From the NCBI GenBank assembly GCA_964560875.1, contig CAZLMW010000014.1, positions 22,864 through 86,863 of the forward strand: a stretch of 64,000 nucleotides of DNA. Direction: 5' to 3'. The notes beneath the pieces are model-generated. The model made no database searches. It worked only from the letters and a program-made list of their open reading frames with translations, and was not told where the DNA came from. This stretch comes from an uncultured Enterobacteriaceae bacterium (GTDB lineage: Bacteria > Myxococcota_A > UBA9042). This document shows, piece after piece, positions 2,849-52,591 of the stretch. The position numbers and the translations under genes were made by a program. The first letter of the stretch is position 1. Every line of letters begins with the position of its first letter.

Positions 2849-3057
2849 CTCACACCCTCACGGGGTGCCGCTGTGCTTGCGAATCAGGCCCGTGAGCATG
2901 GCCGCGACCTTGTCGGCCGCCGCCAGCAGCGCTTCGGCTTCGGCGGCCGGCACCAGACCAAGCGCCGCGGCCAACTCCACCGCCACCGCGCGGGATGCCC
3001 TCACCCCGAGAGGGGCGCCGATCAGCCGGCGTTGAGGAGGCTCGAGGAGCGAGTGGG

Positions 3058-3085
3058 TGTTCGCGTTCGGGTTCGCGTTCGGGTG
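3058..3085. repeat. inverted degenerate copy of the same hexamer: (GTTCGS)4
   Basis: gttcgcgttcgggttcgcgttcggg. Its reverse complement matches the 2822-2848 array including the flanking 'cacccactc' motif. The two copies bracket ~210 bp containing a 48-codon minus-strand ORF (GTG ~3003..2858, '...AVAVELAAALGLVPAAEAEALLAAADKVAAMLTGLIRKHSGTP'). Confidence 0.8.
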
Positions 3086-14613: not shown

Positions 14614-16548
14614 ATGGGGCGTTGTGACCTCGCATCGCCGGCCCTTGTTGCGGTTGTTGTCCTCGTCATCGCGGCTTGCGGTGGTGATCCGGAGTCGGGC
14701 AGCGGCACAGCCGGGTCATCTGGCGGCAGCAACGACGCTGGTGCGGGGACCGTTGGCGACGGTGAGGACGACACCGGCCTGCGGTTCAATTTCGACACGT
14801 CCGGTGGTGGCGGCGACGACACGATCGAGCCCGGCACGTTCGGCGCGCCTTGCAAGACCAACTCGGAGTGCGACTCGACCCTCTGCATCCAGACGGCCGA
14901 CGGCCAGGTGTGCAGCAGGACGTGCATCGAGGACTGCCCCAGCGGCTTTGAATGCCTCGAAAACAAGGTGGCTGGCGGCGACACCGTCTTCATGTGCCTG
15001 CCGCGCTGGCTGCGGCTGTGCGACCCCTGCAACGAGAACAAGGAATGCAACGCTGAGGGCAAGTCGGGCAACGTGTGCGTTTCGTTTGGCAAGAACGGCA
15101 GCTACTGCGGCGTCAAGTGCGAGTTCGACAAGGAATGCCCCACCGGCTACGAGTGCTCGTCGGTGACCGATGCGTCGACCGGCACCAAGTCCAAGCAATG
15201 CGCGGTGACCGCGGGACTGTGCTCGTGCAGCAAGCGCGCCGAGGACCTCGGGCTGACCACCAAGTGCCAGAATTCCTTCCAGGGCGCGGTCTGTGATGGC
15301 ATCCGCAAGTGCCGACCCGGCGGGCTATCCGATTGCAGTGCCGAGGTCCCCAAGCCCGAAGAGTGCAACGGCATCGACGACGACTGCGACGGCAAGACCG
15401 ATAACTTCGACGGCGGCGGCGGCAAGTGCAAAGGCAAGAAGAACGATTTCGGTCAGTGCGAGGGCGTCATCACCGCTTGCAACAACGGCAAGGTCACGTG
15501 CGATGCGCCGGCCGCGCAGCCTGAGAAATGCAATGGCAAGGACGACGACTGCGACGGCGACACGGACGAAGGCCTGTGCGACGACGGCAAACCCTGCACG
15601 CAGGACCTGTGCAACACCGACGGGTCGTGCAAGCACACCAAGGTCGCGGGGATGAAGTGCGACGACGGCAACATCTGCACGCAGACCGATAAGTGCAAAG
15701 CGGGCAAGTGCGTCGGCGGCAACACCCTCGACTGCGACGACCAGGACGCTTGTTCGTCCGACTCGTGCGACAAGCTGACCGGCTGCAAACACAAGCCCAA
15801 CTCCGCTGCAAGCTGCAAAGACGACGGCAACGTGTGCACCCAGGACGTGTGCCAGGCCGGCTCGTGCGTGCATCCGCCCGTCAAGGAAGGCAGCCCGTGC
15901 CCCGATGACGGCCAAGCGTGCACGCAGGACATTTGCAACAACAAGATCTGCCTGCACCAGCCCAAGGACGGCAAGAAGTGCGTCAGCGACGGCAACCCGT
16001 GCACTGCGGACGTCTGCCACAACGGCAAGTGCGCCCACAAGCCGTCCAATGGGGGCAAGTGCCTCGACGACGGCAAGCCCTGCACGCTCGATGTGTGCGA
16101 GCTCGGCAAGTGCATTCACAAGCAGTCCAGCGGCGGCAAGTGCGAAGACGGCAACCCGTGCACGCTCAACGACAAGTGCCTCGGCGGCAACTGCCTGGCC
16201 GGCACGTTCAAGAGCTGCAACGACGGCAACCCGTGCACCAAGGACGCCTGCGATCCCAAGAAGGGGTGCCAGCACGCCAACAACGACTACGCGCCATGTC
16301 AGGCCAAGAGCGGCACCTGCCCGACCGGCATCTGCTGGGGCGGCGGCTGCCAGAGCAAGCCCAACGAGCCGTGTTCGACGAAGGTCAAGGTCGGCCTGTG
16401 CAGCTCGGTTCCGGTGACCGGCAAATGCAGCGCGTCGGGTAAGTGCTCACCAACGAGCAGTCCCAAGCAGGTGACGTGCACCATCAACTGCCAGGGCTTC
16501 TGCATCAACTGCCTCGGCATCCAGCTCTGCATCCCGATCAACTACTGA
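14614..16548 (+). CDS. secreted cysteine-rich lipoprotein (MopE-like CxGxDDDCDG motifs plus CTDC repeats); alternative start ATG 14560
   Basis: MGRCDLASPALVAVVVLVIAACGG has a lipobox, with GAAGGGG SD 7 nt upstream. 'EECNGIDDDCDGKTD' and 'EKCNGKDDDCDGDTDEG' motifs are followed by ~12 'CxDDGNxCTxDxC' repeats. It is divergent from the 2,512-aa gene with a 260-bp shared upstream region. Confidence 0.85.
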   Translation: MGRCDLASPALVAVVVLVIAACGGDPESGSGTAGSSGGSNDAGAGTVGDGEDDTGLRFNFDTSGGGGDDTIEPGTFGAPCKTNSECDSTLCIQTADGQVCSRTCIEDCPSGFECLENKVAGGDTVFMCLPRWLRLCDPCNENKECNAEGKSGNVCVSFGKNGSYCGVKCEFDKECPTGYECSSVTDASTGTKSKQCAVTAGLCSCSKRAEDLGLTTKCQNSFQGAVCDGIRKCRPGGLSDCSAEVPKPEECNGIDDDCDGKTDNFDGGGGKCKGKKNDFGQCEGVITACNNGKVTCDAPAAQPEKCNGKDDDCDGDTDEGLCDDGKPCTQDLCNTDGSCKHTKVAGMKCDDGNICTQTDKCKAGKCVGGNTLDCDDQDACSSDSCDKLTGCKHKPNSAASCKDDGNVCTQDVCQAGSCVHPPVKEGSPCPDDGQACTQDICNNKICLHQPKDGKKCVSDGNPCTADVCHNGKCAHKPSNGGKCLDDGKPCTLDVCELGKCIHKQSSGGKCEDGNPCTLNDKCLGGNCLAGTFKSCNDGNPCTKDACDPKKGCQHANNDYAPCQAKSGTCPTGICWGGGCQSKPNEPCSTKVKVGLCSSVPVTGKCSASGKCSPTSSPKQVTCTINCQGFCINCLGIQLCIPINY

Positions 16549-40510: not shown

Positions 40511-41304
40511 GAGGTGAAGCCCGTGCCGGGTTGGTTCACCTGCCGCTGATCTTGCTCGCACCGGCGCTGCTCATCGCCCCAGCTTGCGGTAAGAAGGGCA
40601 GCGACTCGACGGTCAAAACAGCCCGAGATCACAGCAAAAAAGCCCAGAATCACGGCAAAAAGGACAGGACAGCTGCGAAGAAGCCCGAAACCGCGGGCGC
40701 AGCGGCGGCCGATCCCGCAAAAGGCAGCGAATCCATCGACCCTGCGGCGTCCACGTCCGCTACGGCCGACGAGATCATGGGTGAGCGGCGCAACCGCAAG
40801 CCCGCGATCATCGGTGGCTGCGCCGAATCATGCGCCACACCGGCCAAGCTGGTTGGGCTCCTCTTCGAGGGCTTCACGGCGCGTGATCGTGTCGACAAGT
40901 TGCGCGGGCTGTTTGATTGGTCGATGCTCGAGGTCGACGGTGACAAGAAGGGCGATCGGTGGGCGCTGATGTGGGCGGACCTGCGGCAGCGTTCCAAGCG
41001 CGACGATGAGATTCACGCCTGGCTCAAAGGCTGGGCGTCGTGGGTCGACCGGATCGAAGACAAACACGCGCTCGTTGCGGCGCGGATGAATGGCATCGGG
41101 CTGCAACCGTTGCCGGGGCGCAACGATGTCGTCGCGATCGTGTTCAAGCATCCGAGGTTGCGCGATGACGCGACCGAGCAAAGCTGGCGATTGTTGGCGA
41201 CGCGCCGTGGCTACGAGTGGCTGATCAGCCGGATCGACCACGCGCCGAGCAAGCGACCTTTGCGCAATGTTCCACGCGGCAGCGAGTCGGCCAACAGGAT
41301 CTGA
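40505..41304 (+). CDS. hypothetical secreted lipoprotein
   Basis: GTG overlaps the HD-GYP stop (GTGA). Lipobox ...PLILLAPALLIAPACGKKG, followed by a Lys/Ala-rich linker. No recognisable domain. Confidence 0.5.
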
Positions 41305-42501: not shown

Positions 42502-45500
42502 ATGGGCGGATTCCTGCAGCGATCGACGACCTTGGCGGCGCCTTGGCTGGCGGCCGCGATGCTGTTCAGCGCATGTGGCGACCGGGTAGCAAAGGATAAG
42601 TTTCGTTTCGCGACCGAGTCCGAGCGCAAGGCTGCCAAGACCGGTGACATCGCCTCCGCGAACACCGCCAGCGATACGACGTCCATCGATGCCCAAACCC
42701 CCGACGCCCAAGCCCCCGACGCCCAGACCCCCGACGCCCAGACCCCCGACGCCCAGACCCAAGACGCCCAGACCCCCGACGCCCACACCCCCGACGCCCA
42801 GGCCCAAGACGCTCAGGCCGCGGACGCAACAACCGGCGACGCGTTAGCGGATAGCGCTGCCGCCGCAGACGCCATGGACGAAAAAGACGCCGGCGTCACG
42901 GCCGACACGTCCCAGCCCGATATTCCTGCGCCGCTCGATACAGGCGCCACCGACACCGCCACACCCGAAGATGCCGGGATCGCCGACGGCGGCCCGGTCA
43001 ACAATCAAGACGCCGATGGCGATCCGTCCGACGTCGCGGCGATCGACACGGGGTCTGTCCAGGACGCCGGCGCCGCTGCCGACGCCGCTGGAGGCACGGA
43101 TACCGGCAAAACGGACACAGGGCCGGCGCCCGACACGTCCGGACTGTGCGCTGGCAAGGCAGACGGCTTTGCCTGCGGGGCGACCCAGGGATGCGTGGCC
43201 CGCACCTGCAAGAAGGGTCAATGCGAAAACACGCCCCACAAGGGTGCCTGCGACGACAACAAGCCATGCACCGTCAACGACAGCTGCAAGACCGGCGAGT
43301 GCAAGGGCACCCCCAAGGACTGCGACGACAAGAAGGTGTGCACCAACGACACGTGCGATCCGAAGATGAACGGGATGTGCCGGTACAAGCCGGCAAGCGG
43401 GCCGTGTGAGGACGGCAACCCGTGCACGCTGCTCGATCAATGCCACCAGGGCAAGTGCAAGGCGGTCGGCAAGAACAAGGACTGCGACGACAACAACGCG
43501 TGCACGGTCGACAGCTGCGATCCCAAGATCAAGGGCGCCAACCCAAGCTGCGTGAACAAGGCCGATGCGACCCAGCAAGGAAAGACCTGCGGCTCGGGCA
43601 AGACCTGCAAATCGGGCGTATGCACAGGGGGCTGCAAGAGCGCGGCGGAGTGCGACGACGGCAACGCGTGCACCGCCGACGGGTGCGCCAACAACCTGTG
43701 CATCAACAACGCGAAGTCGGGGCCATGCGACGACGGGCAGAAATGCACCTCGGCGGGAACGTGCAGCAACAAGACGTGCAAGGCGGGCAAAGCCAAGTGG
43801 TGGCTGCGCGACGTAACCACGTCCGAAGCGAGCCAGGGTCTGGTCGCGATGGCGCACAAACCGAGCGGCGGGCTGGTGTTCATCGGGACGACGCAGACGA
43901 CGAAAAACGACCGGGAGTTTTCGGCGCTGCATACCGACGACTACGGCAAGACGACCAAGGTGGTGACCTACGGCGGGCCCGGCCAGCACCAGGCCCATGG
44001 CATGGAGATGGGGCCAGCCGGCGACATGTACCTGTGCGGCAACGCGAATGTGCCCGGCAAGACGGCGAACTGGGACCCGTGGATCGCCCATATCAAGGCC
44101 GACGGCAGCGTCGATTGGACCGCGATGCCCGGCACGTCAGCCAACGCATGGTGCCGCCGAGCGCGACGTTTTCATGGTGGCGTGTTCGCGTTTGGCAACC
44201 GGGAGATGGGGGCTGGCAACGCCAAGTCGCGCGACCTGACGCTGCGCCGGTTCGACACCAGCGGCAAGCAGCAATGGCTGCAGGTCTACGACGTGGCGGG
44301 CACCCAGACCTACGACTACGCGCGCGACCTCGCGGTTGCGGCCGATGCCGACCCGGTGATGTGCTCAATCTCGTACTTCGGCAACGACACGACCGGTCAC
44401 TACGACGCGACGCTTGTGAAGGTCGACGGCAGCAACGGCAAGAAGCTGTGGACCAAGCGCCTGAGCAGCCAGGGCAACCGTCACGACTATTGTTTCGTCG
44501 TGATTCCGCGGGCCAGCAACCGCGTGATGATGGCCGGGGCCAAGGCGATGACCGGCAAGAAGCTCGGCCTGTGGCTGGTCGAGGTGGACGACCAGGGCAA
44601 GCAAAAGTGGGACAAGCTGATGGACCCGATGGCCAATATCGTCGCCGAAGGGCTGCATCCCGCGCCGCATGGGGGCCTGTACTACCTGGGGGCGGAGCAG
44701 AAGACGGGCGGCTTGCTCGTCGGCGTGTTCGGCGAGCTCGACCTGGCCGGCAACTGGCTCACCAAGCGCACCTACACCGGGGCCAAGCAGGTGTATGCGC
44801 GGGCTGGGGCCCTGATGCCCGATGGTGGCATCGCGATGTTCATGTACCAGGTGCCGTCCAACAGCCAGTGGAAGATCGCGCGCGCTTCGCCATGGGGACA
44901 TCGATCCTGTTCCGGTTCGGGCAAGTGTGCTGAACCCAAGACCGTGGGGTGCTCAGACGGCAATGGCTGCACCTACGACTCCTGCGGCAACACATCGGGG
45001 TGCAAGAACACGACCTTCTTGCCCGCGACATCGCCCTGTGAAGACGGCAACCCGTGCACGGTCGGGCAGGCTTGCGTGGCGATCCCACAGAAAAAGACCC
45101 AGTGCGGCGGCGGCGGCAAGCGACTGTTCTACACCACCGTTACCGGCACCAAGAACGAGACCCACGGCATGGCGGAGCTCGCCGACGGGTCGATCGCATG
45201 GGTCGGCACGCACAACAACACAGCGCGGCTACGGCACGTGCTGCCGGGCGGCAAGGTCAACAAGCAGTCGGACTTCAAAGAAGGGACCGGGACCGGGTTT
45301 TCGGACGTCGTGGTCGATAGCGGCGGCCGGCTCGTCGCATGCGGCGCATATACCGCCGGGGGTGGCGGCAAGTATGCGCGGCTGACTTGGTTTGACTCGC
45401 ACTTCAAACCCGCGCTCAAGAAGGATTATCGGATCGGCAACAAGGACTCGTATTGCAGCGCCGTGCACGCGCGACCGGGCGGTCTGCTGGCATTCATGGG

Positions 45501-46209
45501 CCGGCGCGACACGCCCAGGTGGGGCGCCTACTACCACCTCGTCGACGCCACCGGCGAGCACAAAGGCAGCCGCAACTTCGACCACGCGACCGACAGCATC
45601 AGCCCAGCCGGCTTCGCGCCGAGCAGCGACGGCAAGGAATACCTGCTCTTCGGCGGCCGGGGTACGGCGGCAAAGGGGTACGCACATTGGATCGCCGCTG
45701 TGAAGGCGAGCGGTGTTGTTTCACTCGACCAAAAAACGACGTTCAGCGCCATCCAGGGCACCGCGTCGAGCTACCAACGCTACGGCGGGGCCGTTGGCTA
45801 CAAGGGCGACTGGGTCTTGACCGGCCAATTCGTCCACAGCACCGGGTTGCGGTCGTTCGTGGAGAGGCTCGACAAGACGGGCAAACGCAAGTGGCTACAG
45901 GACGTCACTGGCGTGGCCAAGGCGGACTTCCGCGGCCTGGTCATCGGCGCACAGGGCGACCGTTTCATCGCGTCGGGCGTGTCTTCGTTCGGCGCGGGGA
46001 CCGCCATCCGTCTGCTCACGGTGGACGAGTTCGGCAAGAACAAGCACTCCACGCACATCGGCGTCGGCACGAGCTTCGAGGTCTTCCGCAGCAAGCTCAC
46101 CAAGGACGGCGACACGCTGATCGCCGCAGCCAAACATGCCCCCGCCAGCAGCGGCGCAGACGCCCTGGAGATCCGCGCAGACGCCCTCGGCAAGACCACC
46201 TGCAAGTAG
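42502..46209 (+). CDS. giant secreted lipoprotein (~1,235 aa): (TPDAQ)n linker, Asp/Thr-rich acidic region, CTDC Cys repeats, C-terminal PQQ/beta-propeller-like domain; alternative GTG start 42454
   Basis: MGGFLQRSTTLAAPWLAAAMLFSACGD has a lipobox. A 15-nt in-frame tandem repeat is present. 'CDDNKPCTVNDSCKTGECKG', 'CDDNNACTVDSCDPK' etc. follow, then 'LWLVEVDDQGKQKW'-type propeller blades. Confidence 0.85.
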   Translation: MGGFLQRSTTLAAPWLAAAMLFSACGDRVAKDKFRFATESERKAAKTGDIASANTASDTTSIDAQTPDAQAPDAQTPDAQTPDAQTQDAQTPDAHTPDAQAQDAQAADATTGDALADSAAAADAMDEKDAGVTADTSQPDIPAPLDTGATDTATPEDAGIADGGPVNNQDADGDPSDVAAIDTGSVQDAGAAADAAGGTDTGKTDTGPAPDTSGLCAGKADGFACGATQGCVARTCKKGQCENTPHKGACDDNKPCTVNDSCKTGECKGTPKDCDDKKVCTNDTCDPKMNGMCRYKPASGPCEDGNPCTLLDQCHQGKCKAVGKNKDCDDNNACTVDSCDPKIKGANPSCVNKADATQQGKTCGSGKTCKSGVCTGGCKSAAECDDGNACTADGCANNLCINNAKSGPCDDGQKCTSAGTCSNKTCKAGKAKWWLRDVTTSEASQGLVAMAHKPSGGLVFIGTTQTTKNDREFSALHTDDYGKTTKVVTYGGPGQHQAHGMEMGPAGDMYLCGNANVPGKTANWDPWIAHIKADGSVDWTAMPGTSANAWCRRARRFHGGVFAFGNREMGAGNAKSRDLTLRRFDTSGKQQWLQVYDVAGTQTYDYARDLAVAADADPVMCSISYFGNDTTGHYDATLVKVDGSNGKKLWTKRLSSQGNRHDYCFVVIPRASNRVMMAGAKAMTGKKLGLWLVEVDDQGKQKWDKLMDPMANIVAEGLHPAPHGGLYYLGAEQKTGGLLVGVFGELDLAGNWLTKRTYTGAKQVYARAGALMPDGGIAMFMYQVPSNSQWKIARASPWGHRSCSGSGKCAEPKTVGCSDGNGCTYDSCGNTSGCKNTTFLPATSPCEDGNPCTVGQACVAIPQKKTQCGGGGKRLFYTTVTGTKNETHGMAELADGSIAWVGTHNNTARLRHVLPGGKVNKQSDFKEGTGTGFSDVVVDSGGRLVACGAYTAGGGGKYARLTWFDSHFKPALKKDYRIGNKDSYCSAVHARPGGLLAFMGRRDTPRWGAYYHLVDATGEHKGSRNFDHATDSISPAGFAPSSDGKEYLLFGGRGTAAKGYAHWIAAVKASGVVSLDQKTTFSAIQGTASSYQRYGGAVGYKGDWVLTGQFVHSTGLRSFVERLDKTGKRKWLQDVTGVAKADFRGLVIGAQGDRFIASGVSSFGAGTAIRLLTVDEFGKNKHSTHIGVGTSFEVFRSKLTKDGDTLIAAAKHAPASSGADALEIRADALGKTTCK
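42688..42815 (+). repeat. in-frame 15-nt minisatellite (CCCGACGCCCAGACC)~8.5, encoding (TPDAQ)n
   Basis: gatgcccaaacccccgacgcccaagcccccgacgcccagacccccgacgcccagacccccgacgcccagacccaagacgcccagacccccgacgcccacaccc... with single-base variants per unit. Confidence 0.9.
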
Positions 46210-46262
46210 TATTTGGGGGTTATGTCTTGGCAGACGGGTCAGCCCCCGCTGCGTTATTACGG

Positions 46263-46979
46263 TTAGCGGTGGCGGATGTCGAGGCGGCTGGGGACCTTGC
46301 CGCCGTCGAACTCGATCGCTTCGCGGATGTCTTTGGGCACGGGGGCGCGCACGGCGAGGTGTTCGCCTGTCGCCGGGTGCTTGAGTTCGAGGGAGCGGGC
46401 GTGCAGCAGGGTTCGCGGGGCCATTCTCGCAACCCGGCGACCGCCGTAGAGATAGTCGCCGACGATCGGGGCGGCCATTTCGGCGAGGGCGGCTCGGATC
46501 TGGTGTTTTCGGCCTTGTTCGGGGATGACGCGCACGAAGCCGAGGCGCCGGCCGCGACCGAGCACTTCGATCTCGCACACCGCGGGTTTGCCGCCTTGTT
46601 CAACGACGAGCATCTTCTCGCCGCCCTGGATGCGTTGCGGCTGCAAGCGGAGCTCGGAACGGCACCAGCGCACGTGTGGACACGGCGTTGTGAGCGCCAC
46701 GTACATCTTGAGCACTTTGCGGTCCTGGAACGCCTGGGTGACGCGTGCGGCGTTTTTCTTGCCGCGCACCATGAGCAGGACACCTGACGTGTCTTTGTCG
46801 AGCCGGTGGACCAGCAGCAGCTGATCGGGGTCGCGGTTGGCGGATTTTTCGCGATCCTGGGCCCACGCGAGCACGGAACGGCGGCCTTTTTCGTCGTGGG
46901 TCAGCCAGCCGGCGGGTTTGTTGACGGCGAGCACGTGATCGTCTTCGAAGATGACTTTGGGTTTGTCGGCAGCGGCCAT
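46263..46979 (-). CDS. RluA-family pseudouridine synthase
   Basis: MAAADKPKVIFEDDHVLAVNKPAGWLTH...LLLVHRLDKDTSGVLLM gives the KPxG and catalytic HRLDxxTSG motifs. Confidence 0.85.
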   Translation of the reverse strand: MAAADKPKVIFEDDHVLAVNKPAGWLTHDEKGRRSVLAWAQDREKSANRDPDQLLLVHRLDKDTSGVLLMVRGKKNAARVTQAFQDRKVLKMYVALTTPCPHVRWCRSELRLQPQRIQGGEKMLVVEQGGKPAVCEIEVLGRGRRLGFVRVIPEQGRKHQIRAALAEMAAPIVGDYLYGGRRVARMAPRTLLHARSLELKHPATGEHLAVRAPVPKDIREAIEFDGGKVPSRLDIRHR

Positions 46980-47064
46980 CTTCTCAACCTGTACGCGAGG
47001 GCGACGCGAATACGCCCCCCAAAAGCCAACGAGGCGCCCTGGATGATACCGGGACGCCTCGCGG

Positions 47065-47138
47065 TCGGGGTGACTGGATTCGAACCAGCGACTTCTTGCT
47101 CCCGAAGCAAGCGCGCTACCAGACTGCGCTACACCCCG
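47065..47138 (-). tRNA. tRNA-Pro (anticodon CGG)
   Basis: Reverse complement: CGGGGTGTAGCGCAGTCTGGTAGCGCGCTTGCTTCGGGAGCAAGAAGTCGCTGGTTCGAATCCAGTCACCCCGA. It folds as a cloverleaf with a 7-bp acceptor stem, GTTCGAATC T-loop, and anticodon loop TTCGGGA (CGG). There is no encoded CCA. Confidence 0.85.
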
Positions 47139-47255
47139 TAATCCCCTCGCTATGACGCGTTGGGGCTGCGTTGTTTGGCCGATTTGTGGGTGCCTGTCAA
47201 GCTCGCTGTGCGGATCGCCGGGAGCACATGCGAATGCACATTGACTGGCACGAGG

Positions 47256-47984
47256 TCAGACTCCGCGAGCGCCGGTCGACGCGTCGCAGAGAGTCGAGGC
47301 GCTCTGTGAGCCAGGGTGGCTGGCGCGAATAGCCAAGCTGCCGATGTTGGCCATGAAGTCGAGCTTGGCGCTGCGGCGGGGCTCGGGGGTCGCGGGGTCG
47401 ATCGGCGTGTCGTCGAGGCATCGAAATCGCGCGTCGACGGCGAACCCAACGTCTTCCAACGCGCGCTTCCAGCCGCTCTCCGACAGGCGGATCAGTGGCA
47501 CGCCCAGGTCTGCAGACCACGATGCGGAGTGCGGGTTTTCTTTGTAGTGGTCGACACAGATCGTCAGTGTGCCGCCGGGTTTGAGCACACGCGCGGCGCT
47601 GACGAGCGCGGGGTTGAGCGCAGGTGCGTAGTACAGCGCTTCCATGCTGAAGATGTGGTCGAAGCTGGCGTCCCGAAACGGCAGGTCATCAAACGCGTGG
47701 CGCCGGTAGCTGACGCCGTCGACAGGCACGAGCCGGGCTCTTTGCAGCATGACAGCGGCGACATCGACCCCGATTGCGCTGCCGCCATCGCCGGCCTGGG
47801 CACGCATCCAGCGGGTGGCCCAGCCGTTGCCGCAGCCGAGATCGAGCATCCGCTGGCCGGGCGCGATTGGGATCTGTCGCAGGGCTTGGAGGCCGCGGCG
47901 CTTGTGGGATCGCTCCATCCCTTCGGCGCGGCCACGTCCGGCCCAGTCGTCGAACAGAGCTTCGGTCGCGTGGTGGTGGGGCAT
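47256..47984 (-). CDS. class I SAM-dependent methyltransferase
   Basis: '[16 protein letters not shown]' is motif I (GxGxG), followed by '[10 protein letters not shown]' (post-II). Its start is 3 nt after the upstream zinc-ribbon gene's stop. Confidence 0.8.
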
Positions 47985-47987
47985 CGG

Positions 47988-48386
47988 CTATTTCTTGCCG
48001 AAGAGCGCGTCGAGCTTGGCGCGGGCTTCATCTTCGGGCGACGAAGCGCCCCAGCTCGCCTGGGGTTTGGCCGGTCCGCCGCCGAACAGCGCATCGAGCT
48101 TGGACTTGGCCTCGTTGAGCTCGCCGCCGACCTCTTCGCCCATCACCCGGAACTGGAAGTGTCCGCAGAAGTTGCCGGCTTCCCGGTCGCGGATGAACTC
48201 GCCCTGGTTTTCGAGGCATTGGTTGTGGGCGCTGGGGCTCCAAAACCGGCAGTTGCGGCACGAATGCAGGTAGGCGCTGCAGTTGGGGCACGTATCGAGG
48301 CGGCCAATCTTCACGTCAAAGACCAGCTCCTCTTCGCACTTGTAGCACTGGTGCCGCTTCTCTTCGGCCTTACCAAACAGGGACAT
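47988..48386 (-). CDS. small zinc-ribbon protein (132 aa) with duplicated C-terminal 'KLDALFG' motif
   Basis: ATG 48386 with GGGGAGG SD 5 nt upstream. CYKC...CPNC...CRNC...C cysteine ladder. The repeat array lies immediately upstream. Confidence 0.6.
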
Positions 48387-48402
48387 CACGACCTCCCCGA
48401 GT

Positions 48403-48588
48403 TTGCGCAACCCAAACCCAAACCCGAACCCGAACCCGAACCCGAACCCAAACCCAAACCAGAACCCGAACCCGAACCCGAACCCAAACCCAAACCCAAA
48501 CCAGAACCCAAACCCGAACCCGAACCAGAACCCGAACCCAAACCCGAACCCGAACCCGAACCCAAACCCGAACCCAAATCCGAACTAA
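48403..48588. repeat. 186-bp hexanucleotide microsatellite, ~31 units of CCGAAC/CCCAAA/CCAGAA; G-rich (GGGTTC/GGGTTT)n on the minus strand
   Basis: Directly visible tandem hexamers. The array fills the entire intergenic space between the S8 protease stop (48585) and the SD of the zinc-ribbon gene. Confidence 0.95.
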
Positions 48589-51500
48589 GCGACCGACCGC
48601 CGCCGAATCGCCACGACCGCGAGCAATGCCAGTCCGAGCAACCAACCCATCGGGCCGGGGCCATTGCTGACCGGATGCGCGGCACACGAGTCGTCCTCGG
48701 GCTCCTTGTCGTCGTCCTTCTTGGCGCAGACAGCCCTGTCGCCGGTGTAGGGGTCGGTATCGGCGTGGTAGTTGTTGGTGTTGTGCAGGTCGTGGCCGTA
48801 CCAGGTCCACTCGTTGACCGAGCCTTCCTTGGGGCCCTTGGTCTTCCACGCGAACATGTAGCCGTTGCGCGTGCCGACCGCGACGTCCCAGTTGCCATCG
48901 CCGTCGATATCGCCGAGGCCGGGAGACGCGAGGATCCAGCCGTTGGTGTACTTGGGGAAGCCTTCGGGCTCCTTGCCGAGGTAGTTCCAGGCGTGCAGCA
49001 GGTAGCCGGCTGACCCTGCGATGACCTCGGCGTCGTCGTCGCCGTTGATGTCCACGATCGCGGGGTTGGAGAAGAACTGCCAGTCTTCGATGACGCGCGG
49101 CCAGCCCTCGACCATCTTGCCGGTGAGCGTATCCCAGGCCGACAGGTGGTGGTCGAAATCGGCGCGCTCGCCGCCCGACGCGAAGGTCAGCGCGAAGTTG
49201 AAGCCGGCCGTCGCCTTGACGAAATCCACGCCGCCGGTGCGGTCGATCTTTCCGAGCGAGCCGGTCGCGATGAGGATGTAGGCCGGGCTGTCTTCGGTGT
49301 TGCTGCCCTTGCCGAAGTTGATGTTGTCGAGCTTGTCGGCGAGCTTGTTTTTGCCGGGGATCTTCCACTTGTGCGGCTCTCCGTCGTGCTTGAAGAAGAG
49401 GCCAGCGGAGCCGATCGAGTCGAAGTTGATCTCCAATTTGCCGTCGAGATCGATGTCGACCATCACCGGGTTGCCGGGCACGCCGCGGCCGACGAGGGGC
49501 AGCACGTCCGCCATCAGGCCGTAGACCTTGATCGGCCAGCCTTTGTGGAACGGCCCGCCCGCGTGCTCGTTGCCGTCACCGTGGATGAGGTAGCCGCGCG
49601 CTTCGTTTTTCACACCCGCGGCGCCGAGCACCTCGTTGGTGCCGACCGCGATGTCGAGCTTGCCGTCGCCGTCGACGTCACCCACCGCGGGAGTCGCGAC
49701 GATGCGGGCCCGCAGTTTGCCTTTGAGCGCCGGGTCGCTGACGAGCACGGGGAAGCCTTTCTGTTGCGAGCCGTCGTGGCGGAACACGTACAGGTGCTGG
49801 TCCATGGCCGAGACGACGATCTCGAGTTTGCCGTCACCGTCGAGGTCAGCGAGCACCGGGCTGCTGCAGATGCCGTCGTCGAGCACATGATCGGGGCTGG
49901 TCTTGCTGGACAGCACGTTCTTCACGCTGTCGTCGATGACGTTCTTGGGGTCGGTGCGCACAGGGAAGCCAGTGACCGCTTTGCCGTCCGCGTGCCAGGC
50001 GAGCAGCGAGCCGTCGTAGGTCGCGACCACGACTTCCACTTTGCCGTCGCCGTCGAGGTCACCGACCGCGGGCGAGTTGATGATGATGGTCTCGCGGTAT
50101 TTGCCGGGCAGCGTGCCCTGTTTGGCGACGCAGTCCTTCTTATCCTTGCGGTAGGCGCAGGCCTTGAGGACGTTGAAGTGGTAGTCGTCCCGGAACTCGA
50201 GGCGCACAGGCGCGTATTGCGGCCACCCCTCGGCCTCGGTGCCGTCGCCTTTCCAAACGTGGATCGCGCCGTCGGTGGTCGGCTGCACGATCTCGTCTTT
50301 GCCGTCGCAGTCGATGTCGAACAGCTTGGGCGACGCCTCGATGCTGGTGCCGATACGCTTGGGGTAGCCGGGCAGCAGGTCGGGCTCCTGGTACAGGCCG
50401 ATGGTCTTGCGGAACTCGCCCTCGACGGTCTTGCCGGCCTTGTTCTTGGCGGTCGCCGTGAGCCTGAGGGTGACCGTGTACTGGTCGTGGTGCAGCAGCG
50501 GCGCGGTGTAGTTGAACAGCTCCTTGGCGATGGCGGCGGCGTCCATCTCGAAGATCGTGCCTTCCATGCCGGCGGTGCTGCCTTTTTTCAGCTCTTTCCA
50601 GCCCGACTTGGGGTCGACGCCCTTGGCATATTCGAGCTTCCATTCGTACTTGTTGTAGCGCGGGCTCTTGCCGTCGGGGCGCTTGCCGATGCGGCCCTTG
50701 ATGGCGATCTTGGGCGACTGCGTGATCTCGATGGGCTGGAACCAACCCGGCTCGACGATGTCGATCTCCGGCGGAATTTCGTCGTCAAGGATCATCGACA
50801 CCGACTTGAAGACGTTGTTGCGTCCGTACCCAAAGTGCAGGTCCCAGCCGGCGACCGACGGGAATTTTGTCTTGTCGGTCTTGGACTCGGGCACGTTGAT
50901 GTCGTCGGCGGACTTGAGCAGCACGCCGCGCATCTCTTCGGCGCTTATCGGTGGGTTGAGCTTGGCTTGTAATGCGGCGCTATACATCAAGCCCGCGTGG
51001 CCCGATGACATGCCGACAGCTTCGGATGAGCAGCCCGTTCCCGGTGTGCTGAGCACGAGCTGGCCGCCGTAGTTGGTGCAGTTGTTGAAGTTGAGGAAGG
51101 TGGTCGACGTCTTGGGCGAGTTGCCGTTGTAGACGATCGCGTGCACGTAGATCGTGTGGTTGTTGGTGCCCGGGAAGTTGTGGTGAAAGCTCAGCTCGTC
51201 GGCGGCTGACGCGATGACGGCGACGTTGTTGCTGTACGCGTATTCGATCGCGTTCATCGCGTAGGGCGTGTTGTTGATGCTGCCGAGGGCCTCCTGGATG
51301 ACGTGGGCGCCGCTGTCGACCGCGAAGACGACCGACGCCGCGAAGTCGTTGACATCGCACACGAAGCTGTCAGCCACGCGCACGTTGATGATCGTGCACT
51401 CGGGGCAAACGCCGATGCTCCCGCGGCCGTTGTTGCCCTCGGAGGCGGAGTCGCGCGCTTCGCCGGTGCCGTGGCCAAAGCGGGTCTCGTCGTACGGGTT

Positions 51501-52301
51501 GTTGTCGTCGCGGAAGAAGTCCCAGCCGCTGATGTCGTCCACGTAGCCGTTGCCGTCGTCGTCCTTGCCGTCCGAGAAGGTGCGGATGAGGTCGCCCGGA
51601 TCGATCAGCCCGTTCTTGTTGACGTCCTTGACGCGCGAATCGCAGGGCGTCTTGGGGCGCGCGTTACCGTTTTCCTTGGTCCAGTCGAGCATGTTGAAGA
51701 TGCCGTCGCCGTTGGTGTCGTACGGGTCGGACGCCTTGAAGTCCTTGGTGCGGCAGGCTTTTTCGGGTTCGGGCAGCTCCTTCTTGTTGAGGTAGTGCTT
51801 GTTGACGAGGTCGTCGTGGTCCCACTTGATGCCCGAGTCGAGCACCGCGATGCGGACGCGGCGGTCGCCTACGGTCTTGGTCCATGCTGTGTCGGCGTGC
51901 ATGCCGGCGCCGGCTTTGAATTCCGGCTGGCGAAAGCCGTCGGTCATCGCGTAGCTGATCGGCGTCCACGACCAGAGGTTCCAGTCGCCGCCGTCGACGA
52001 TGTAGCGGGTCTTGCCGTCCTTTTCGGTCAGCTTGTCGTACTTGGCCTTGCAATCCGCGAGCTTCTTGGCGTCTTTGGTGGCCAGGAAGTTTTCGCACGT
52101 GAACGGCAGGCATTTGCCGTCTTTGCCCTTCTTGCAGCGCGCATAGCCGCCGTCGTTGGGCCAGTTGGCGGGATCGCTGAAGTCAGCGCCGGGTTTGGGC
52201 GGCCATGCGGCATCAGCTGGCGGGCTCGAAAACGCGGTGATGGCGAACAGGACCAGCGAAGCGGCCCACACGACGCGCGGAACGGGAGCGAAAAAGCGCA
52301 T
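48585..52301 (-). CDS. secreted S8 subtilisin-family peptidase fused to FG-GAP beta-propeller repeats, with MYXO-CTERM-like C-terminal sorting signal (1,238 aa)
   Basis: ATG 52301 with GGAGG SD. Signal peptide [31 protein letters not shown]. 'RIAVLDSGI' (Asp), 'FGHGTGEA' (His), 'GMSSGHAGL' (Ser). About 8 units of 'DLDGDGKxE'/'[15 protein letters not shown]' FG-GAP repeats. The tail '[33 protein letters not shown]' has a Cys, then a TM helix, then Arg cluster. Confidence 0.85.
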
Positions 52302-52591
52302 AGCAACCTCCGACAATGGCCGCGGAAGGTAGCGGAGCGACGTATTGGGGGCAACGGGGAAACGAAAGGAGCCGCCCTTGTCCTCAATGGAGTCGACGAA
52401 GATGGCGACGAACCCACGCACGGCTATTCGGTGCTCAAACTGCAGCGGTCGCGAAGCCACAACGTGAGATTCGCCTTGTCCTGCTCCCCGCTCTGAACAA
52501 GCTGTTCACCGGGCAGACGACCATTGCGGAGGCCGACGCGATCACCTACTTTGCCGTCAGACAGGGGTCTACCCGCACAAGGAGGCCACCC

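Follow-up and report, generated by a model that had tools for sequence, protein, structure and literature searches.

A lineage-specific, G-rich hexanucleotide array in the spacer between the genes for a subtilase-family protease and a zinc-ribbon protein in an uncultured Myxococcota-like bacterium: a probable product of replication slippage

A stretch of 64,000 nucleotides from contig CAZLMW010000014.1 (assembly GCA_964560875.1, positions 22,864 to 86,863 of the forward strand; hereafter the window), which belongs to a metagenome-assembled genome (MAG) of an uncultured Myxococcota-like bacterium, carries a tandem array of 29 hexanucleotide units, 174 bp in all, between the genes for an S8 protease and a Cys-rich zinc-ribbon-like protein. 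The reading we favour, with a probability of roughly 0.6, is that the array is a lineage-specific microsatellite that was expanded by slippage within an intercistronic spacer and is carried there passively, with no dedicated function. The array lies far beyond chance expectation and has the makeup of a microsatellite, or long simple sequence repeat (LSSR): an 18-mer probe of three units matched 33 times in the window, against 0.06 matches expected from shuffles. Tandem Repeats Finder (TRF) places it at 48409-48585 with a period of 6, 29.5 copies, 87% matches, and a score of 249, and reports a second, partial higher-order period of 36 bp, or six units, with a score of 277. Slippage followed by block duplication is favoured as the origin because a head-to-tail 6-bp period overlain by a 36-bp period is typical of that process. 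Read on the minus strand, which is the sense strand for the array and both flanking genes, the 29 units comprise 14 TTCGGG, 11 TTTGGG, 3 TTCTGG, and 1 TTCGGA, in the order ATCTCCCTCWCCTWTTTCCCWTTCCCCTT when counted from the protease stop codon. A C-to-T change at the single CpG of TTCGGG, giving TTTGGG, accounts for 11 of the 15 variant units, and the longest pure run of one unit is four.

Comparison with orthologous loci supports the view that the array arose in this lineage. The comparison covered 14 distinct protease-to-zinc-ribbon spacers from relatives with zinc-ribbon protein identities of 67-83%. The order of a protease gene with a hydrophobic-RRR C-terminus followed by the zinc-ribbon gene is kept in all 14 loci, and the position of the protease stop codon after an RRRxxx tail is conserved across them. 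The spacers measure 13 nt (L133-135; loci are cited by label), 50 nt (L004/5), 54 nt (L130-132), 57 nt (L007/8), and 83 nt (L129), with about 2-240 nt in nine further loci (L136-L144), and the approximately 24 nt of non-repeat spacer that lie outside the array in the window fall within this range. None of the 14 spacers contains a run of the hexamer, not even two consecutive units, and the array is therefore best explained as a lineage-specific expansion or insertion; because every related genome examined is without it, we regard it as a recent expansion rather than as a conserved regulatory device. A candidate proto-repeat in L004, consisting of CGG-TTC-GCG (one rotated unit) before the stop codon and a loose GTTTTCG duplication after it, was rejected as too weak to be the ancestor of the array. 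The ancestrally short spacer suggests that the protease and zinc-ribbon genes are co-transcribed. Since the spacers of relatives can be as short as 2-13 nt, "intercistronic spacer" is also a better term than the gene leader of the preliminary description, which was correct in placing the array ahead of the zinc-ribbon gene but implied a stand-alone leader.

The same locus was found in three independent metagenome assemblies (ENA ERZ27251152, JGI 3300009703, and ENA ERZ27249630), on source contigs of 23-90 kb from at least two projects, and the array is base-identical in all three. Two of the assemblies are identical to the window across 6.4 kb, and the sole differences in the other (L001) are three synonymous single-nucleotide polymorphisms (SNPs) at positions 3030, 3075, and 3081 of that locus. 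These SNPs cluster within 52 bp (48306-48357) where the zinc-ribbon coding sequence begins, at distances of 54-105 bp from the array, and may reflect chance, strain recombination, or repeat-adjacent mutagenesis. Unit-number polymorphism was not detected, there being no length difference at the consensus level among these three nearly clonal assemblies. A scan of metagenomes for length variants, using the unique 3' junction GGGTTGCGCAAACTCGGGGAGGTCGTGATG, returned 0 matches; as the JGI contig carries this junction, the scanned collection evidently does not include that contig. The earlier proposal that the array is a slipped-strand hot spot thus finds no support in these assemblies, given that its length and sequence are constant even in the assembly with three SNPs in the flank. 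This constancy could reflect stabilising selection, or it could reflect the stabilising effect of the interruptions combined with very recent common ancestry.

The features of the locus are listed in Table 1. The array and its short remainder of unique sequence fill nearly the whole space between the two genes, as had been described, and the calls of the S8 protease, zinc-ribbon, and methyltransferase genes are upheld by profile matches and homologues. In its extent the preliminary description was partly mistaken: the array is real, but the size of about 31 units and 186 bp is too large because the range it gave, 48403-48588, is that of an artefactual open reading frame (ORF) encoding a PNPN repeat. 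The 1291-amino-acid (aa) protease matches Peptidase_S8 (E=2.9e-16) and FG-GAP_3 (E=1.3e-20), and its C-terminus, a hydrophobic segment followed by RRR, gives a sub-threshold match to MYXO-CTERM (18.6 bits versus a cut-off of 20). The zinc-ribbon protein matches P0001 at 100% and has homologues of about 125-140 aa; profile searches matched it to no Pfam or NCBIfam family. Beyond the methyltransferase gene, also on the minus strand, lie tRNA-Pro and a gene for an RluA-type pseudouridine synthase. In L004, L130, and L131, the methyltransferase gene is missing at this position and the zinc-ribbon gene is followed directly by that for the pseudouridine synthase, so the pairing of zinc-ribbon and methyltransferase genes also appears to be lineage-specific. 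The G+C content of the window is 65%.

Table 1. Features at and around the hexamer array (window coordinates)
Feature	Position	Strand	Remarks
S8 protease gene (Peptidase_S8 subtilase + FG-GAP repeats)	48585..52460	-	profile matches
TAG stop codon of S8 protease gene	48585..48587	-	array begins at next base
Hexamer microsatellite, 29 units	48411..48584	-	units run from 48584 down to 48411
Non-repeat remainder of spacer, 12 nt, TTGCGCAAACTC	48399..48410	-	between last G3 tract and Shine-Dalgarno sequence
Shine-Dalgarno sequence, GGGGAGG	48392..48398	-	5 nt upstream of ATG; read from sequence
Predicted local 20-nt hairpin pairing Shine-Dalgarno sequence (GGGGA) with codons 2-3 (UCCCU), enclosing AUG	48379..48398	-	ensemble centroid
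ATG of zinc-ribbon gene	48384..48386	-	start codon set by homologue length
Cys-rich (multiple CxxC) zinc-ribbon-like protein gene, 132 aa	47988..48386	-	homologues
SAM (S-adenosylmethionine)-dependent methyltransferase gene	47256..47984	-	begins 3 nt past zinc-ribbon stop codon

For the folding of the transcript, the orientation of the array is of consequence. The preliminary description had pointed out that (GGGUUY)n, with its G3-N3 spacing, would lie in the mRNA near the ribosome-binding site (RBS), and this is accurate: the sense strand is the G-rich strand, and its last G tract lies 12 nt from the Shine-Dalgarno sequence (SD). An intact G3 tract is present in 25 of the 29 units, and because the four units of the TTCTGG and TTCGGA types interrupt the pattern, the tracts with 3-nt loops fall in runs of 8, 3, 6, and 8. 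The array accordingly contains the four or more G3 tracts with 1-7-nt loops on one strand that define a putative G-quadruplex (G4). The G4Hunter scores calculated from unit composition are 1.33 for GGGTTC and 1.5 for GGGTTT, and the G4Hunter listing also contains other G-rich spots above 1.5 elsewhere in the window. Folding of the 231-nt sense RNA with ViennaRNA gave -95.7 kcal/mol with five G4s placed when the G-quadruplex option was used, and -61.8 kcal/mol with hairpins only (z = -2.5 versus shuffles), in an ensemble that is very diffuse, the minimum free energy (MFE) structure having a frequency of 0.0001; the C-rich antisense RNA is predicted to be essentially unstructured, at -11.3 kcal/mol. 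As GGGUUC is self-complementary via G·U wobble pairs, a long hairpin would compete with the G4s, and this modelled competitor was missed in the earlier note. The oligonucleotides d(GGGTTC)3GGG and d(GGGTTT)3GGG appear in the G-quadruplex category of a published table (PMC8305571). Prediction and analogy therefore support the G4 capability that had been ascribed to the array, with the qualification that the pattern is not unbroken. The only structure retained in the ensemble centroid is the local hairpin at the SD (Table 1), which is independent of the repeat. A search of positions 46000-50000 against Rfam, at E values up to 1, returned only tRNA-Pro and a chance match to a miRNA, and nothing at the array, and a scan of 47900-49000 found no sigma-70-like promoter hexamers around it. 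A terminator scan yielded five minus-strand matches with 20-pair stems of only 3-5 G-C pairs each; these were rejected as intrinsic terminators, as the stems are the repeat's own G·T wobble pairs and are followed by GGTTCTGGTT-type tails with no T tract.

Under the reading we favour, replication slippage would have expanded the hexamer inside the short protease-to-zinc-ribbon spacer, and multi-unit blocks of 36 bp would later have been duplicated. The array would then have been degraded by point mutations, chiefly C-to-T changes at CpG together with a few transversions. Interruptions lower the slippage rates of microsatellites, and those present here should now slow further slippage. From that point on, the array would simply be carried in a transcript presumed to span the protease, zinc-ribbon, and methyltransferase genes. 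Because its G-rich strand is the sense strand, both the RNA and the displaced non-template DNA could fold into as many as five tandem three-layer G4s or into a long G·U-rich hairpin. As such structures would be bulky and only 12 nt upstream of the RBS, it is plausible that they incidentally alter read-through, mRNA processing, or initiation.

Several observations weigh against this reading. The base-identity of the array in three assemblies, including a strain variant with three flanking SNPs, is one of them, and its length is another, as the 29 units exceed the 27 of the longest among 121 arrays listed from a scan of other genomes (see below). The hexamer also recurs within the window, at 2823-2855 and 3053-3085, which hints at a genome-wide propensity. 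The only argument for co-transcription is the shortness of the spacers in relatives. Finally, judging by analogy with systems studied experimentally (PMC11087576, PMC10801317), long G4-capable tracts on the sense strand of a transcribed region are likely to affect the phenotype in some way when they adjoin an RBS, which makes strict neutrality doubtful.

The array might instead be under selection as a cis-regulatory structure, with tandem G4s in the RNA or the non-template DNA, or else the G·U hairpin, serving to insulate the cistrons from each other or to tune their expression: read-through from the protease gene would be paused or terminated, or a bulky barrier ahead of the RBS would increase or reduce translation from the zinc-ribbon gene and the methyltransferase gene. 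We consider this unlikely, even though there is a good deal in its favour: the G-rich sense strand with its 25 G3 tracts and 3-nt loops, the computed stability of the five-G4 fold relative to the hairpin alone, the proximity of the last tract to the SD, the listing of oligonucleotides of exactly these units as G-quadruplexes, and the identity of the array in three assemblies. G4s are also known to alter translation in bacteria, as RNA G4s in the 5' untranslated region enhanced translation in Escherichia coli up to 12-fold in a size-dependent manner (PMC11087576), whereas G4s inhibited the translation of PE/PPE genes in mycobacteria (PMC10801317). These opposite outcomes mean that the sign of any G4 effect is not predictable from the literature, which itself counts against a specific regulatory role. 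More telling is the absence of the array from all 14 orthologous spacers, by which it is neither ancestral nor conserved and leaves no covariation or conservation test that a regulator could pass; conservation of the kind expected of functional G4s or structured leaders is lacking in the orthologous spacers (0/14), as is an Rfam match. In addition, the hairpin has a z-score of only -2.5 and belongs to a diffuse ensemble, and the SD is predicted to be held already by a separate local hairpin in which the repeat takes no part. The earlier suggestion that the array throttles read-through or initiation is therefore not favoured by the comparative data. A narrower version, in which a very recent expansion created, de novo, a barrier of tandem G4s or of a wobble hairpin that sets the ratio of secreted protease to zinc-ribbon and methyltransferase expression, strikes us as improbable. 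[quoted passage not shown] A long simple sequence repeat with a short unit is an intrinsic substrate for slippage, but the array had the same length in all three assemblies, which come from at least two projects and include a slightly different strain, and it is interrupted, with no pure run longer than four units. It is also a single locus in an environmental organism rather than in a host-adapted pathogen, and no promoter elements are predicted around it. Phase-variable repeats lie within an ORF or between -35 and -10 elements, and this array was found in neither place, as it follows a stop codon and precedes an SD; changes in a 6-nt unit cannot shift a reading frame in any case.

Two further alternatives concern the nature of the sequence itself. 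No stop codon interrupts the array in any of the six frames, and the frame that reads (FG)n is shared with the protease and zinc-ribbon ORFs (47988-52460), a single TAG being all that intervenes. The repeat could thus be coding, whether as an (FG)n read-through product, as an extension at the N-terminus of the zinc-ribbon protein, or as a protein of the (PE/PK)n or (PN)n type encoded by the other strand, and it is true that the GC3 of the FG frame (0.79, versus 0.83-0.89 in neighbouring genes) is coding-like, that C/T and G/A differences between units are silent in this frame, and that in other genomes this DNA repeat seems to encode protein, in PE, NP, and GS linkers. The sharing of a frame is, in our judgment, a one-in-three coincidence. 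The synonymous pattern in the FG and PN frames was rejected as a sign of coding, as it is not significant and CpG transition plus block duplication suffice to produce it; since about three founding mutations, two of them at wobble positions, together with duplication explain the variants, there is no sign of coding or structural constraint. The FG frame contains no ATG, GTG, or TTG from the TAG to position 48410, the protease stop codon is constant after the RRRxxx tail in all relatives, and the zinc-ribbon homologues have no repeat extension, and we therefore treat the array as non-coding. The two longer minus-strand ORFs through the repeat overlap the well-supported protease gene in other frames, and the ORF on the plus strand lies antisense to three genes with good support, in line with the initial view that the three ORFs called through the repeat are artefacts. 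Start codons, gene overlap, and homologue lengths led us to reject the FG read-through, GS, VR, PE/PK, PN, and RT readings alike, and a dipeptide linker is likewise not indicated, there being no start in the shared frame and no repeat in the homologues of either neighbour. A coding role is thus largely refuted already, and the chance that remains for it is negligible. It is scarcely less far-fetched that short-read assembly created or collapsed a low-complexity array or distorted its length. GGGTTY arrays do lie at contig ends in other MAGs (L045, L063, L081, L096, L099, L105, and L113), but here two ENA contigs of the MEGAHIT k141 type and one JGI contig give the same 174 bp with the same irregular interruptions, and it is the irregularity of these interruptions that makes the array resolvable in assembly.

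Arrays of the same hexamer are found well beyond this organism. A scan for (GGGTTY)5 in one genome per species matched at least 120 stretches, and the matches listed span Actinomycetota, Pseudomonadota, Bacillota, Planctomycetota, Cyanobacteria, Bacteroidota, and other groups. Among the matches listed, 18 of 120 come from Myxococcota or "delta proteobacterium" records, a share that looks over-represented as a raw count not normalised for the genomes scanned, and the array in the window might be one of a class of GGGTTY arrays on the sense strand that is enriched in Myxococcota. When delimited by the same extension rule, the 121 arrays listed have 5-27 units, and the array in the window is longer than any of them. 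Many of them seem to be coding, in PE, NP, or GS frames with long spanning ORFs: the array in L079 reads (EP)n, and that in L074, on a complete Polyangiales chromosome, reads (GS)n and then (GGGS)n within an open 125-aa ORF. Others resemble the present array in position, including 25 units after a stop codon in an intergenic region of an Acidobacteriaceae genome (L083), 24 apparently intergenic units in a betaproteobacterium (L017), and short arrays between same-strand genes in L116 and L125. To judge from these sequences, the scatter of the arrays shows that they stem from sporadic mutation and do not make up a single functional family. A literature search for this exact repeat in bacteria yielded no prior description of bacterial (GGGTTC)n arrays, only primer sequences and the table of G4-ligand oligonucleotides.

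Some of these loci deserve mention in their own right. The closest analogue among the sampled genomes is a compound array of more than 300 bp in a Planctomycetota MAG (L056 3580-3950, JACKHP010000033.1), which has the form (GGGATC)n(GGGTTC)n(GGCTTC)n with 27 GGGTTY units and is intergenic, about 20 nt past a stop codon. The complete 9-Mb Polyangiales chromosome (OZ245758.1) has at least two GGGTTC arrays that adjoin other microsatellites (L074 4007-4170 and L118 4430-4581), one being followed by (GGTGGTGGTTCC)5, so that it would read (GS)n(GGGS)n, and the other being preceded by (GGTTTC)n. About 10 of the 121 arrays listed lie at the very end of a contig, namely the seven cited above together with L087, L102, and L127. 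GGGTTY arrays thus commonly end short-read assemblies, and their true lengths are therefore underestimated.

Within the window, the two short arrays mentioned above, (CCCGAA)4.5 at 2823-2855 and (TTCGCG/TTCGGG)4 at 3053-3085, lie in opposite orientation and form a 33-nt inverted repeat with 88% complementarity. The 197-nt segment that it encloses belongs to a divergent intergenic region, ahead of a gene for a D-Tyr-tRNA deacylase-like protein. RNA read from the minus strand is predicted to fold with the arms paired, at -168.5 kcal/mol (z = -3.96). The possibility that the 197-nt segment is the remnant of a four-helix-bundle gene of the type found in 23S rRNA intervening sequences (IVS) was considered and set aside, as the likeness is to the C-terminus and below threshold: the encoded peptide matches TIGR02436 with E=0.12 and 12.7 bits versus a cut-off of 24, and PRK12275 with E=0.049. 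Searches of Pfam and PDB found nothing relevant, and no second copy of the segment is present in the window or the fetched loci. Three other tandem repeats were also detected. A 15-bp/45-bp repeat at 42687-42827, with 86-87% matches and its 15-bp unit present 9.4 times, falls within the gene for a 1251-aa Cys-rich protein with Dictyostelium-repeat matches and encodes a low-complexity stretch of the (PDAQT) type; its plus strand is C-rich, with a G4Hunter score of about -1.6. TRF reports the other two, an 81-bp unit present 2.5 times (75% matches) at 15976-16171 and a 21-bp A-rich unit, CAAAAAAGCCCAGAATCACAG, present about 2.4 times at 40609-40662.

The hexanucleotide repeats C9orf72 GGGGCC and telomeric GGGTTA of eukaryotes are known to form G4s. 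Like them, the array is a presumably transcribed, non-coding tandem expansion of a G3-4 hexamer that is open in all frames; it differs in its unit and its prokaryotic setting, and there is no sign here of instability, translation of the repeat-associated non-AUG (RAN) type, or protein binding. Prokaryotic parallels are closer. LSSRs of the 5-11-nt class, as they are presented in PMC4679880 after Mrazek et al. 2007, likewise run head to tail beyond chance expectation with a slippage-type origin and, like the GGGTTY arrays, are sporadic, phylogenetically scattered, and located both within and between genes. Against that broad background, the present case concerns one locus of one uncultured Myxococcota-like MAG, and its length lies at the upper end of the range sampled. 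The TAACTGA heptamers of Beggiatoaceae, Cyanobacteria, and Bacteroidetes also form intergenic tandem arrays of a short unit, with up to 43 copies, point toward a start codon close by, in some cases lie immediately behind the upstream stop codon, and vary in presence and length among strains (PMC4679880). However, they constitute a genome-wide family, with 169 sets in one genome and a strong positional bias that suggests a trans-acting binding factor, and their unit is not rich in G and places stop codons in every frame (PMC4679880), whereas the window holds one large array and two arrays of 4-5 units in 64 kb. The RNA G4s of E. coli reporters (PMC11087576) and of M. tuberculosis PE/PPE genes (PMC10801317) resemble the array in that G3 tracts separated by short loops lie on the sense strand near an RBS and are predicted to form an RNA G4; the known examples alter transcription or translation. 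Those cases differ in being single G4s or G-rich coding regions that were studied experimentally, whereas the present one is a predicted G4-former of 25 tracts within a microsatellite, with a competing hairpin and no conservation.

The array is thus a long prokaryotic microsatellite and a putative G4 sequence that is notable mainly for its length and position. If it is neutral, it offers a clean case of a G4-capable microsatellite that grew to 174 bp in an operon spacer with the genes undisrupted. Such repeats also have practical consequences, as they yield spurious ORF calls and break assemblies. If expression is affected, the locus would be a rare natural example of a multi-G4 array beside a bacterial RBS and a test bed for the conflicting reports on RNA G4s. 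Neither outcome would alter the current view of any major question. Should the array indeed act as a barrier, it would provide a natural bacterial example of G4 number as an evolvable tuning knob.

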